Source: Chrysomallon squamiferum (lineage: Eukaryota; Animalia; Mollusca). From it: a stretch of 64,000 nt of DNA. Below are positions 1 to 47,218 of the stretch, piece after piece. The stretch spans positions 8,184,001-8,248,000 of the forward strand of contig CM022675.1 in assembly GCA_012295275.1 (NCBI GenBank), written 5' to 3'. The first letter of the stretch is position 1; each line of letters begins with the position of its first letter. The position numbers were made by a program, and so were the translations under genes. Under the pieces are notes generated by a model. It was not told where the DNA came from, did not search any database, and saw only the letters and a list, made by a program, of their open reading frames with translations.

Positions 1-70
1 TATTCTGAAACTCATGAAATCCTTAGACGTTGAGTTCAGGTCTTCGTATGTTTACCGAATACTGAACTAA
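1..70 (+). CDS. 3' end of exon 5 of a further Cys-rich-peptide/Hint gene (copy 0), truncated by the window edge
   Basis: From position 2 it reads ILKLMKSLDVEFRSSYVYRILN* (TAA 68-70), matching the C-termini of the other copies; the array therefore continues to the left. Confidence 0.85.
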   Translation, partial: ILKLMKSLDVEFRSSYVYRILN

Positions 71-2619
71 GTTCGTTTTCCTAAAAATATTTCGTTTTCT
101 TTTTTTCTTCTTGTATCCTACACTAAGAGGAGTAAGGTATTTTCATCCTTGGGACTCCTGGAGACAGTGAACCAATGTCAGCAAACTTACAAAAAAAAAA
201 TGTAATAGTTTAATTGTTAATTAACTCATCTAATTATTTTTAATAAAATAGTGCATAAACCTCGATAAAATATTGTGTGTATAAAATAAAAAATGATATC
301 GGTTTATATCAGTTGACCGATATATATCAAATATCATTCATATATATCTGTTTCTATTTCTGTCTGTAAATATATATGTATGTAACAAAAAAGGGTCAGA
401 AAAGCAAAATGAGAAACATTTAATAGGCAAATGGTTAAAATATTCTGCAATATTCAGGCCAAATAATGAAATGATAAGTCAGAACTACACAACTTTTTGT
501 TTTGCTCTTTAACATTGATTTTCTTGGAAGCAGAAGAGATGATTTAAAAATGCAACTATAATAAAACATTAGAATTGGCGCTTTCATACCGGTCGACACA
601 AACTTTAATCATTTTATTAGAGACTTTTGATAACATACAAAGTGTAATCTACATTCAGTTAATACAAATTGAAATTGCTGCAGGTGATCCTCAAATATGT
701 TACGACTCTCATAATTGCTCTGTAATATGAAAATGTGATAAATCATTTCATGTATCTTAATGAGAGAGAGAGAGAGAGAGAGAGAGAGAGAGAGAGAGAG
801 AGAGAGAGAGAGAGAGAGAGAGAGAGAGAGAGAGAGAGAGAGAGAGAGAGAGATTTTTTGCTTTAGACATTCACTGTCCCTAGAAGACGACCCATCAGGT
901 GTAAGTAATTAAAAAATAATAATAATCCGAGTCATGATGACTGATGCGAGATTAATTTATTTAATCTGTGAAAACAGAACTGTAGTTTAAGTATCTATAA
1001 CCTAAATAACCTGTGGACATGGACTTCTTATTTAACTGAATCACGTAAAGAAACTGGCATAAGCTTAAATGTTGGTACTGTCGTGATAATGAATACAGTG
1101 TTACTTCGGCCCCTAAGATTGAGTATTTCTACAATATCTTACCTTTCCCCTCGACAATTCGTAGGCTGTATGAACAACTCCACTTCCTCTGCCACACGCG
1201 ATTGAATCCTTTGGTAATAGCTAGTCCTCCTTCAGTTCAGTAGGTGGAAGCTGTTACCTGGGCCAGATGAACCTTAGCTCTGTAGTTCTCTCCCGGGCAT
1301 CCCGCCACCCAGAGTTACAAATTAAATTGCCTTATCCCATGAAACTACTTGTATTATAGCACAAATTAAATGTTCATTTGGTTTTCAACCGGTTGACCTT
1401 GCTTATGAAAGCACTGATGGTGGCATCTTTTCAATCTGGCTCTTTGTGCTCTGGTTGACAGGATTCTGTTGCTGATGAACCTTGCAAAATAGAGCAGTAT
1501 TATGAATATGACATTGATATTCATTTGGGTGGGTGGACGTGAATTTTTTTCCCGTAGTGGCTGAAATGGCGCTTGAATTGGGGAGACTGATTACTGCGGA
1601 TGTGGCGCTTATACTACGTGGGCCAGTCAACTAGAGTTAATTCCCTTTGGCCTTTTCCCCAGCTTTAACCAGTTACCACTAACCTCGCAACTAGATATAT
1701 TTTCCTGGCATTAAATGGGATTATTAGGTATTACGAATAATCTCTATTATAATATTATGATGAAAATTGTGTACGTTCATAAGCTATAGGTGCTGAGAGT
1801 CTCACAGTAATATTTTCAAACGAAATGTTTTTATCTTAAGTAAAAGATAATTTTATTTTCAAGAGAATAGCAACGTTTAAAACAACATTTCCTTTGTGAT
1901 TTTATTTATTATTTTCTTTAAAACATCAAAAGTATATTTTTCAGATGATCGTTTTCAATTGCCATAGATAATTTAGACAATTTATACTTATACTTCGAGT
2001 CTGCTTTCGCAAATTAAATGGTTTATCATGTTGTTGTTTTTTAAAAAGGGATTAGCAGCAAAATCGTATGAAAATATTTCTAAATTATCCATCTGTTCAA
2101 CTGCTGCGATTTGAATTCGAACAACTGAATGTAGCTTTATTCTCATAGTTCGTGTCCTTCTATTTAAAAATATTTATATGATCGTCTGTTTTAAAATTAA
2201 ATTTACTGGAATACCAAGAAAATGAAAGTTAAAGTGAAAATAAGGTGGTCAAACAAAATAATGTGTATTTGTGACCTTTTTTTCATTATTCGGCCTGACT
2301 TTAAGTCTACTGCAAAATAATACAATAAAATAATACCGTTGAAACTATTTTAATGCTGGTCATTCAACTTTTCACAATTTTCTCGCATGATGCTTAAAAA
2401 ATTTTCAGTTTTATTTCCTGTTTTTCAGTCTTTAATTTAATTTAACTTACTTTAATTTTGTATTTATTTTTAAGCTGAACAAGGGCTTGTAATTTAGTAA
2501 TAGAGAATAATATAAGTACTGAACCCCTAATCAGACACTATAACTGGTAATTTGGCACAATGCAAAGCAATATAAAATGATATTATGTGTAGAATTTTGC
2601 TAACAGACAACTTATCTTT

Positions 2620-2915
2620 ATGCTCGCTTTCAGAAGTAAAAGCACATTCAGTTATTAGAAATTCAAATCGCCTACAGATGAACTTGAAACAGTCTTTCAA
2701 TTTTTTTTATTTAATAACAGATTGATTTCTCGCTTCGTGCTTTTACGACTATGCTAATCGCTTTGAAAAAGAGAAAAATTATGAATCATGTCATTTACCT
2801 GTCTCACACGAACATACTGCATGAGAGAGAGAGAGAGAGAGAGAGAGAGAGAGAGAGAGAGAGAGAGAGAGAGAGAGAGAGAGAGAGAGAGAGAGAGAGA
2901 GAGAGAGAGAAAGAG
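2620..2915 (+). repeat. Recurrent spacer module ending in a long (GA)n tract
   Basis: cattcagttattagaaattcaaatcgcctacagatgaacttgaaac...tttacgactatgctaatcgc...(GA)n recurs at ~640-853, 6640-6976, 12040-12373, 12820-13122 and 35860-36122, and inverted at ~19196-19460, 24118-24380 and 26780-27060. Confidence 0.8.
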
Positions 2916-44896: not shown

Positions 44897-44974
44897 CACG
44901 GGGATTATCTCTACTGGCATCACGGGGATTATTCTACTGACATCACGGGGATTATCTCTACTGGCATCACGGGG
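44897..44974 (+). repeat. Three copies of a 23-24 bp tandem repeat
   Basis: cacggggattatctctactggcat repeated three times, plus a partial fourth copy. Confidence 0.85.
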
Positions 44975-46535
44975 AAATCGAGGAGCTCGTTGAAAGACGT
45001 TCGCGCGTTCGTCAGAAATGAACTTCTACGCTCACCAACAAAGTCGACGGGAACGGGGTTGAGGAGAAAATTACGATTCGACGAACGTGTATTGATATTT
45101 ACACTGAATATTATAGAACGTTAACAGCCATAAGTTTTGCTAGAATGAAAACAGAAACATAATTTCAAAATGTAAAGATTACAGTACAGATATTGCTATG
45201 AATAGCATGTTCATTAACTTTAATTGTAACGGATTTGCTACCATGTGCGGTTGGATTCATGTCCTGTACAAATATTCAACTTCTTCATGGCAACATGGAG
45301 ACAGCATCCGGGGACTTTCTTGCGCTGCTAATGGCTTTTTATCCTTTCGTGACAACGACTCAGCTTGTCGTCTGAGCTTCAGACATATTTTCCGCAAGGA
45401 AGAGAAACAGCTCAGTCTGTTTGCTGGTGTCTTGATTTGGTGGCCATATTGAAAAATGTCTTGAAATTTTCAAATGACCAGTACAGACAGCAGTGAAAGA
45501 CAACAGTGGCACATTTCATGCTTTTTTCATAATTATTACCATTTACATAATTATCTCTTATCAGTTCCACAGCATTAAGCCAAGAAAGCATATGACAATT
45601 ACTAATGTGCTACATTATCAGAAAAAGCGTGTGTCAAGGGAGTTTTAAAACATAGGATTCCACACTTAATTAATTTATGTAAATCGGACAACTACCAATA
45701 CTTCTAAGCCACATCTTAATAAATGTCCCTCAGTGAGACAGATTCGATTAAAAATTACTGGAATTCAAATGTGCAAAATTTGAGCCTTGTATCGTAATGT
45801 GCACGATTTTTCTGATATCTACTACTGTATATAAACAGGCGGAACGACAAGCTTTATTTGAATTTGTCAGATTTCTGGATATAGAATAAATATGCCCTTA
45901 AAATGTAACATAAACGCGTATGTCACGAAAAACCAAAACAAAGATCTGAATAAAACCTTTAAGAACACCAGAGCTTAATGGAACGCAATTTTCGGATCCT
46001 GTAAACATTTTGACACTTTCTCCGCCAGTGCTGAAATTGAGTTATAAAAATTTTACAAAGATGTAAAAGGAAACGATCTAGAAAACTCTCTATAACCTGA
46101 AAGTGTCTAAGGCTTGTAATAATGTTCTCGCATTCTTTGTAGACTACTTTCACACCATCATGATGGAAACTCTTATCTTCTACCAAACTATTCTGAGAGA
46201 TATAGGATTGTAACATTTCCCAAAGAGATATAGTTAAAAACAAATATAATAATAATTAAATCAAAAAATAAAATAAAATAAAATGATTCTCCAGGATTCA
46301 AAAAAAAAAGAAAAAAAAAAGAAAATGACAACAGATTTTACCAAACGTGCACGGGCAAAGTACATTCAACAATCCTTCCACGCCTCTAGAACAGCTTGCA
46401 CAAGATGTAAACGAATATAATTTTAAATTTCGAAAATCTTAATTTCAATTCCGCTCGTAGGTTGGATGCCTCCCAGACCTTAACATTAATTTCAATAGTC
46501 ATTCATAAAAACAATACATTTTCTTAATAACTTAC

Positions 46536-47218
46536 CTGTGAGAACCTTCTGACCTGCAGTTAGATGATACGTTTTTACTACTGAACCGTCTTAGAGTAGA
46601 GGATTACTGTCACCATGGTAACAGGGCGAGTTACAGCACCACGATCTAAATAGAATTTGGCACACAGCAACAAACGTAATCAAACAATGTCATTTGCATG
46701 TTGTTGTTTTTTATTTTTATCAGTACAAGTACGTTTCTTCTGAAATAAAAATATGTTTAGTTAAACACGTTTGTGAGAAGCAAGACTCTGGGATACTATT
46801 TATTACAAAAATGGTCACACAGAGAGGCATACAATGTATTATTAATAACGTTTTAGAAATGACCCATGTAGTCTAATAATAGTGAAATAGATTAGAGAAA
46901 ATAAAAGCGTCTATGCGTTCTGCTCTAAGCGTATCCAAGATGATTTTTTTTATAGAAACAAACGACAGACAGAACTACATTTTGGCACACGTACTATAAT
47001 CGTTTCCTCTGCTTATCTCAACAACAAAAAAATGAACAGAAAGTGAAATAGGCACTGACCGTCAGACAGAGAGACAAGTTGCTCAGAATCACCTGCTGAT
47101 AGACACATGCAAACAAAAACAACAAAAAACAGGCACGTGATACAGCGAAATGTTTTAATATGAAAATATCTCTGACATATTACCAGTAGCTCGATTTAGT
47201 AAAAGTAGAATATTCCAT
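46536..47218 (-). pseudogene. Copy 10: decayed exon 1 and exon 2 relic at the right edge of the array
   Basis: Shortened exon 1 (47218-47184, MEYSTF...) with ATGCAAAT upstream at 47300-47293. Exon 2 (46739-46536) reads ...WCCNSPCYHGDSNPLL*DGSVVKTYHLTAGQKVLT|gtaag, with in-frame stops. Confidence 0.78.

Follow-up and report, generated by a model that had tools for sequence, protein, structure and literature searches.

A tandem array of predicted secreted eight-cysteine peptides joined to Hog domains in Chrysomallon squamiferum, the scaly-foot snail

A 64-kb stretch of the genome of Chrysomallon squamiferum, the scaly-foot snail (assembly GCA_012295275.1, contig CM022675.1, positions 8,184,001 to 8,248,000, hereafter the window) carries a single five-exon gene as an array of 12 copies or relics; each complete copy encodes a hydrophobic leader, a short peptide with eight cysteines and, immediately behind it, a Hog domain of the Hedgehog type (Hint plus sterol recognition region). 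The Hog domains nest among paralogs of the chemosymbiotic snail Gigantopelta aegis, in which many hedgehog-class genes are raised in the gland that houses the symbionts. As a tentative reading, which we consider possible rather than probable, we favor the view that the predicted secreted peptides are freed from their Hog domains by hydrolysis without cholesterol and act on bacteria, possibly the symbionts of the bacteria-housing gland.

Copies were located by self-comparison, by tblastn and blastn and by exon searches of the window, to which all copy counts refer. The 12 copies or relics span 47 kb, between 2 and 47218, in agreement with the original prediction of at least 12 in 47 kb. Six of them (B, D, E, G, I and J) are complete, having five exons, GT-AG introns and open frames, and the anatomy foreseen for complete copies (five exons, leader, eight-cysteine frame) holds for these six, with peptides of 32–38 residues rather than the 32–40 first given. 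The splice structure is predicted from sequence; in all six copies it gives intron phases of 1-1-2-1 and proteins of 247–253 amino acids. For exon 2 of B and D the acceptors adopted are the AGs at 8863 and 15207, which keep the reading frame, stood second in the automatic ranking and yield open eight-cysteine peptides. Exon 1 encodes a hydrophobic leader of 16–17 codons that, as judged by eye, satisfies the -3/-1 rule, and exon 2 encodes the peptide followed at once, without a linker, by CFHG.

All intact peptides end in Cys, and the residues between successive cysteines number 1, 10–16, 1, 1, 6–8, 0 and 2. This frame occurs six times in the window and not once in any of 30 shuffles, which rules out a chance pattern of cysteines. 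Charge ranges from -4 to +5, four of the six peptides being cationic and aromatic, and the predicted mass is 3.4–4.3 kDa for the free peptide and 27 kDa for the uncleaved protein. In their small size, leader (by eye), fixed cysteines and variable loops the peptides are like symbiosis-type peptides. None of the six matches a Pfam family, nor did they find a match in the Atlas; AlphaFold modelled exon 2 poorly (predicted local distance difference test, pLDDT, 58; predicted template modelling score, pTM, 0.26), and a structure search with that model gave no match. A metallothionein-like identity was dropped in view of the leader and the aromatic and aliphatic loops. Duplicates of a true hedgehog gene were ruled out by the absence of a Hedge domain: where Hedgehog has an N-terminal domain ending in Gly, the copies have a peptide ending in Cys.

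A Pfam scan, run exon by exon on copy B, matched Hint (PF01079) in exon 2 (E = 9.5e-6), exon 3 (4.4e-9) and exon 5 (4.6e-10), with exon 2 alone falling below the curated cut-off and exon 4 without a Hint match, and so bore out the earlier assignment. The fold was examined on a G. aegis relative, P0158, as a stand-in, whose model superposes on 1AT0/6TYY with a template modelling (TM) score of 0.93 by target, indicating a Hint fold. Aligning P0158 to 1AT0 and SHH fixed the catalytic positions, the Hedgehog active site being made up of C1, D46, T69, H72 and C143 (PMC12054796). Cys1 and the TxxH of block B are retained in all six intact copies. At the site of the general base Asp46, where His is tolerated, five have Lys, the ancestral residue in molluscan Lophohogs, and one (J) has Glu. 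Cys143, in motif J, is lost throughout, while it is kept in 19 of 19 compared relatives and in 113 of 130 scorable homologs, the other 17 having a different residue there (20 of 150 were not scorable). Ser, Thr or Asp in place of this Cys has been reported in Hog domains of red algae and mosses (PMC2362128).

In Hedgehog, loss of D46 blocks cholesterol transfer, speeds cleavage by thiols and is thought to permit hydrolysis; D303 guards against hydrolysis, D303A/N/R/E mutants are cleaved faster by dithiothreitol (DTT), and D303A is unable to add cholesterol (PMC9163320). Since Asp46 and Cys143 are both absent, attachment of cholesterol or another sterol by the window Hog domains is unlikely. 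Self-cleavage before Cys1 by these predicted domains has, in our judgment, slightly better than an even chance. The 19 relatives give 38 columns that are conserved in 18 or more of them; all six copies retain 32 of these, and Hog is therefore still constrained. The idea that Hog serves as a built-in processing enzyme stands as regards its position directly behind a small disulfide peptide and its intact Cys1 and TxxH; self-release is uncertain, and the losses of Asp46 and Cys143 had been missed. Exons 3 and 4 of the six intact copies also carry two conserved N-glycosylation sequons and a pair of cysteines five residues apart, which fits the secretory pathway.

Copies B and D stem from a recent duplication of 3.6 kb, with introns about 4% different and 16 changes in the 186 codons of Hog. 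Their peptide-coding parts differ at 23 of 95 bases (24%) vs 137 of 3447 (4%) elsewhere (p = 1e-11), with 22 replacement and 2 silent changes (one-sided Fisher p = 0.043) and a ratio of replacement to silent substitution rates (dN/dS) of 3.9, in keeping with the earlier view of a diversifying peptide. Silent divergence in the peptide is not significantly above that of the flanks (p = 0.22, with small counts), which favors selection over an older converted tract. Outside the cysteines, the B and D peptides are 4–13% identical to those of the other copies. Hog is under purifying selection in both E/G (dN/dS 0.30, p = 0.002) and I/J (0.22, p = 8e-8). I and J (37900–43520) are mosaic: they differ by about 2% in the 5' half and by about 5–25% per 100 nucleotides over most of the 3' half, with divergence rising sharply from the start of Hint onward, which we read as a sign of conversion or unequal crossing-over.

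Relatives were sought by a HMMER search with exon 5, which gave 233 proteins at E<=0.001; among the best 150 of these 233, which were examined, the named best full-length matches come from G. aegis, Haliotis, Patella and Capitella. Proteins of the window itself did not appear among the HMMER matches, and a word-based protein search with the same exon gave no match among longer proteins. Lottia, additional G. aegis paralogs and an Acanthochitona protein deposited as 'lophotrochozoan hedgehog-related' came from two more searches. In a tree of Hog alone (29 rows), the base of which is unresolved, the six window copies form a single clade (100/100) on a stem branch of 0.55, within the G. aegis radiation (96/98, 98/95) and adjoining Haliotis. 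The nesting persists after removal of Capitella, Pycnogonum, P0016, the outgroup and one fragment. G. aegis contributes at least 12 Hog proteins to the set, with N-termini that include 8-, 6- and 4-Cys versions and astacin fusions, and the frame of the window peptides recurs in P0158, with a 12-residue linker, and in P0189, with a linker of one residue. Eight Lophohog-type proteins, from which the Lophohog N-terminus is defined here, have CxCxC-x9/10-CCxC, a 6-residue linker and Hog in common, and the window copies are 39–42% identical in Hog to the one named Lophohog (P0159).

The array probably descends from the Lophohog family. A profile of the peptides scored 12.4 against Lophohog, within the range of 40 shuffles with cysteines fixed (8.2–20.8), and 24.7 against the eight-cysteine peptides of G. 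aegis, a score that 6 of 40 shuffles reached, so nothing beyond cysteine spacing was detected; the putative homology of the peptides to Lophohog is carried solely by that spacing, by position and by the Hog tree, and the non-cysteine residues contribute nothing. In P0191 the fourth and eighth cysteines are both lost, and their joint loss suggests that they pair, which would tie down the residue just before the cut site. It had been allowed beforehand that the peptide might prove to be the N-terminal domain of a described Hog family. That is partly so, in that Hog sits with Lophohog-related gastropod proteins and the full eight-cysteine frame is present in G. aegis, whereas the Lophohog N-terminus differs. 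Given the shared frame and the relation to Lophohog, the architecture is a variation on known peptide-Hog designs. The array itself is real, and its novelty as an expanded cluster stands insofar as we found no paper on one: neither the tandem diversifying array nor the G. aegis Hog expansion and its gland expression is described in the literature searched, which took in neither the review that introduced Lophohog nor the PMC5103448 supplements, where the N-terminal domain or further short-peptide Hogs may be shown.

The closest known systems are the G. aegis paralogs (XP_041356242.1, which is P0158; P0189; P0191; and XP_041379577.1, which is P0003), automatically named 'indian/desert hedgehog-like'. 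These share with the window a signal peptide, a small Cys-rich peptide and a Hog domain (50–55% Hog identity), Lys or His at the Asp46 site and a central pair of cysteines in Hog. Cys143 is retained in them, and they have a propeptide that contains basic residues and, before Cys1, a linker of 1–12 residues; the window copies have none of the three. Lophohog itself, with Acanthochitona crinita APD15680.1 (P0159) as reference and similar proteins in Lottia, Patella, Haliotis and Capitella, likewise combines a secreted Cys-rich N-terminal peptide, with a CxCxC...CC core, and Hog (34–45% identity), with Lys at Asp46 in the molluscan members. It is a conserved, low-copy protein with six cysteines, a long propeptide, Cys143 and mostly an RxEL-like C-terminus, while the window has a tandem array of hypervariable peptides with eight cysteines, CCxxC and no linker, and lacks both propeptide and RxEL-like end in all six intact copies. 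The domain HhC (PDB 1AT0, 6TYY) agrees with the window in its Hint fold, Cys1, TxxH and a tail like the sterol recognition region (SRR), and differs in having a Hedge domain, Gly rather than Cys at -1, Asp46 and Cys143. Short-hogs of enoplean nematodes (Ts Xhog3, XC Shog1/2) have a signal peptide, a predicted released peptide of 15–34 residues and Hog, and are not described in the account of them as eight-cysteine, arrayed or diversifying (PMC2362128). Short N-termini on Hog were already known from these, and Cys-rich ones from Lophohog (PMC5103448, PMC9695228), and 11 Hh-related genes are recorded in Lottia cf. kogamogai (PMC5103448).

The relatives show further variety. G. aegis has fusions of an astacin metalloprotease with Hog from the same radiation (P0002, P0160, P0161, P0005). 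The Lophohog-type proteins P0159, P0004, P0009, P0154, P0005 and P0016 end in QTEL, RIEL, RTDL, RTEL or RSEL, ends not found on the window copies, which we take to resemble a signal for retention in the endoplasmic reticulum (ER) and which would presumably keep the spent Hog there. In P0003, residues 34–60 form a cationic, aromatic 4-Cys peptide ahead of Hog, similar, as we take it, to beta-hairpin antimicrobial peptides. The Hedge-domain tail of SHH and Drosophila Hh can be aligned with the last Cys and linker of P0158 (residues 52–74), by chance or as a trace of origin. Because the sea spider Pycnogonum litorale has a Lophohog-like Cys frame before Hog, with Asp46 kept (P0163/P0055), the family may extend beyond Lophotrochozoa.

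Expression of the relatives is recorded for G. aegis in the hologenome paper (PMC7895826, Supplementary Data 1 and 2). Of its 16 KOG3638 genes, 11 are raised in the oesophageal gland, which houses the symbionts, vs 1782 of 21,438 genes (8%) overall (p = 4e-9; 10 of 12 when counted by contig), with log2 fold values of 3.3–8.6. Two further hedgehog-named genes outside KOG3638 are also gland-raised, and the two models resembling true hedgehog are not; an astacin-named gene adjoining a Hog gene is likewise raised in the gland. Hedgehog is unmentioned in the main text of that paper. The expression of the relatives points to control of microbes and not to venom. In C. squamiferum, the scale and mantle lists of PMC7142155 hold no hedgehog-named genes. 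Four sequencing runs gave no splice joints over 7000–9440 and 38740–40400, and in one RNA run (X3) a small number of short contigs of low depth fell on exon 4, exon 5 and an upstream stretch of related copies; these may be DNA carry-over and are neutral on expression.

The favored release reading can be set out in steps. It is very probable that the genes are expressed, that signal peptidase would cut the 17-residue leader and that four disulfides would form in the ER. The balance then tips slightly toward a Cys1 that, without Cys143 as partner, performs the N-to-S shift aided by TxxH, with water resolving the thioester; the product would be a 3.4–4.3 kDa peptide ending in Cys. The window copies lack the propeptide with a basic cleavage site that the relatives have. 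Nodule cysteine-rich (NCR) and bacteriocyte cysteine-rich (BCR) peptides are small secreted families, variable in charge and tied to symbiont-housing cells. They have no autoprocessing domain and their likeness to the window peptides is an analogy only, and with it we would place a microbial target a little above even odds. A bolder form of the release reading, which we regard as improbable, would see a factory for symbiont control built from a Hedgehog-type developmental module in peltospirid vent snails, in which a Hog domain lacking Asp46 and Cys143 takes a new route: the peptide's own Cys or amino terminus resolves the Cys1 thioester and yields free or backbone-cyclised disulfide peptides, diversified by selection. 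If true, the nodule cysteine-rich peptides would have an animal counterpart that carries its own intein-like enzyme for processing.

Several observations weigh against release and a microbial role. Cys143 is lost in all nine exon-5 copies (Ser in 3, Asn in 4, Ile in 2), while in Hedgehog autoprocessing in cells is abolished by C143A and by C143D, and DTT cleavage, too, is stated to need C143 (PMC12054796). Retention of C1 and H72 is insufficient as proof of catalysis, 32 of 38 conserved columns being kept as well. The replacement excess is clear for the B/D pair only, the E/G peptides having a dN/dS of 0.56, the I/J peptides being one residue apart and distant pairs being saturated; gene conversion is evident among the copies, and Hog of B/D is not significantly constrained (dN/dS 0.64, p = 0.29). 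Peptide B is neutral and peptide D acidic. The expression data come from another species, with gene identifiers unmatched to the aligned XP proteins and with paralogs that are not independent, and as the gland was compared with foot, gill and mantle only, the signal may reflect gut origin (PMC7895826). In the tables for the scaly-foot snail itself (PMC7142155, 13 files) a single Hog candidate, 'indian hedgehog', is gland-raised, 2.4-fold.

The catalytic losses are what a non-cutting Hog would be expected to show. Here Hog would be a folded carrier, perhaps bound to membranes through SRR helices, and the variable peptide would be displayed on an uncleaved 27-kDa protein that recognises or binds microbes, a target in common with the release reading. 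To the loss of Cys143 and replacement of Asp46 can be added the block of processing in C143 mutants (PMC12054796), the long stem branch at the time of the Cys143 loss, the purifying selection still acting on Hog, and the absence of a linker before Cys1, so that the scissile bond follows a Cys that is likely disulfide-bonded. Yet Cys1 and TxxH persist in all six intact copies, and a free Cys1 would be useless to a mere scaffold. Inteins without a +1 Cys, moreover, still cleave N-terminally. Loss of Asp46 itself favors cleavage (PMC9163320). On balance we hold the carrier to be rather unlikely, though a close rival of release, and unlikely too, by a further step, that the peptides are directed at the host, with a Lophohog ancestry and a role as ligands in signalling or components of the extracellular matrix, much as Hedgehog-related proteins of nematodes are parts of the cuticle. 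The conserved 6-Cys domain of Lophohog relatives from chiton to annelid, the matrix role of Hh-related proteins in C. elegans (PMC10793445) and the astacin-Hog fusions within the same G. aegis radiation would suit such a role, but the low identity outside the cysteines, together with the replacement excess in B/D, is more in line with an arms race than with a fixed receptor, and similarity to the Lophohog peptide is limited to Cys spacing.

Decay can be set against the same selection data. Half of the copies (6 of 12) are broken or partial and a catalytic Cys is lost, as might be expected if local duplication had left behind a silent or decaying array of little remaining function; against this stand six intact open genes with every splice site, significant purifying selection on Hog in two of three independent pairs, and the retention of all eight cysteines while the loops change, which make decay very improbable. 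Least probable of all are venom-like or deterrent toxins against animals, part of the original prediction, for which we found nothing in support. A constant Cys frame with hypervariable loops recalls conotoxins, but the peptides have no Pfam, Atlas or fold match, and their closest relatives belong to a chemosymbiotic snail, in whose symbiont gland they are raised.

Whichever reading holds, the array supplies synthesisable candidates of 32–38 residues for studying how chemosymbiotic vent snails control bacteria and what non-Hedgehog Hog proteins do, and a published but undiscussed expression signal ties its relatives to the symbiont gland. The six intact copies are natural double variants at Asp46 and Cys143 (Ser, Asn or Ile at the latter) and allow the branched-intermediate mechanism proposed in 2025 for Hedgehog autoprocessing to be tested directly, the alternatives being cutting without Cys143 and a non-catalytic role of Hog.

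Table 1. Copies and relics of the peptide-Hog gene, in window coordinates
Feature	Position	Strand	Exons	Remarks
Exon-5 3' end	2..70	+		Copy cut by window edge; from tblastn/blastn and translation
Copy A	3789..5856	+	five; exon 2 at 4215-4425 (211 nt)	Frame-shifted within peptide-coding part of exon 2: broken gene or assembly error
Copy B	7983..10693	+	7983-8034, 8863-9045, 9669-9840, 10164-10270, 10464-10693	Intact; neutral peptide of 32 residues; codon for Hint Cys1 at 8958; Ile at Cys143 site
Relic C	11679..11834	+		Exon-2 fragment; six Cys; Hint Cys1 replaced by Ser
Copy D	14326..17003	+	14326-14377, 15207-15395, 15996-16167, 16477-16583, 16774-17003	Intact; 34-residue acidic peptide; recent duplicate of B
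Copy E	20819..22986	-	22986-22938, 22503-22300, 21713-21542, 21269-21163, 21048-20819	Intact; 38-residue cationic peptide; Ser at Cys143 site
Relic F	27858..28087	-		Isolated exon 5
Copy G	29350..31304	+	29350-29398, 29836-30039, 30339-30510, 30823-30929, 31075-31304	Intact; 38-residue peptide; inverted duplicate of E
Relic H	34813..35258	+		Exon-4 remnant plus exon 5
Copy I	38299..40229	+	38299-38347, 38806-39006, 39264-39435, 39758-39864, 40006-40229	Intact; 37-residue cationic peptide; Asn at Cys143 site
Copy J	41425..43431	+	41425-41473, 41963-42163, 42466-42637, 42954-43060, 43217-43431	Intact; peptide identical to that of I at 36 of 37 residues; Glu at Asp46 site
Relic K	46526..47218	-		Degenerate exons 1 and 2 with stops

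The window has a guanine-plus-cytosine content of 31.7% and abundant microsatellites. No gene was recognised in 48000–64000, where there are tandem duplications (59236–61942), minisatellites (48729–49170, 51135–51648 and 53286–53538) and, near 62.6–63.9 kb, two open reading frames without a significant Pfam match. Over 38908–40195, summed contig depth in run X1 is 1300–5300 on Hog exons vs mostly 20–160 on the peptide part and introns, a contrast that hints at many further Hog copies with other peptides in the genome, depth not being equal to copy number. Inverted duplications with 86–93% identity (19563–24109 with 28243–32474, and 25715–27382 with 35521–37199) are the source of E and G and of upstream regions, and a block of about 130 bp is doubled directly 5' of the start codon in B (7669–7956) and D (14014–14299).

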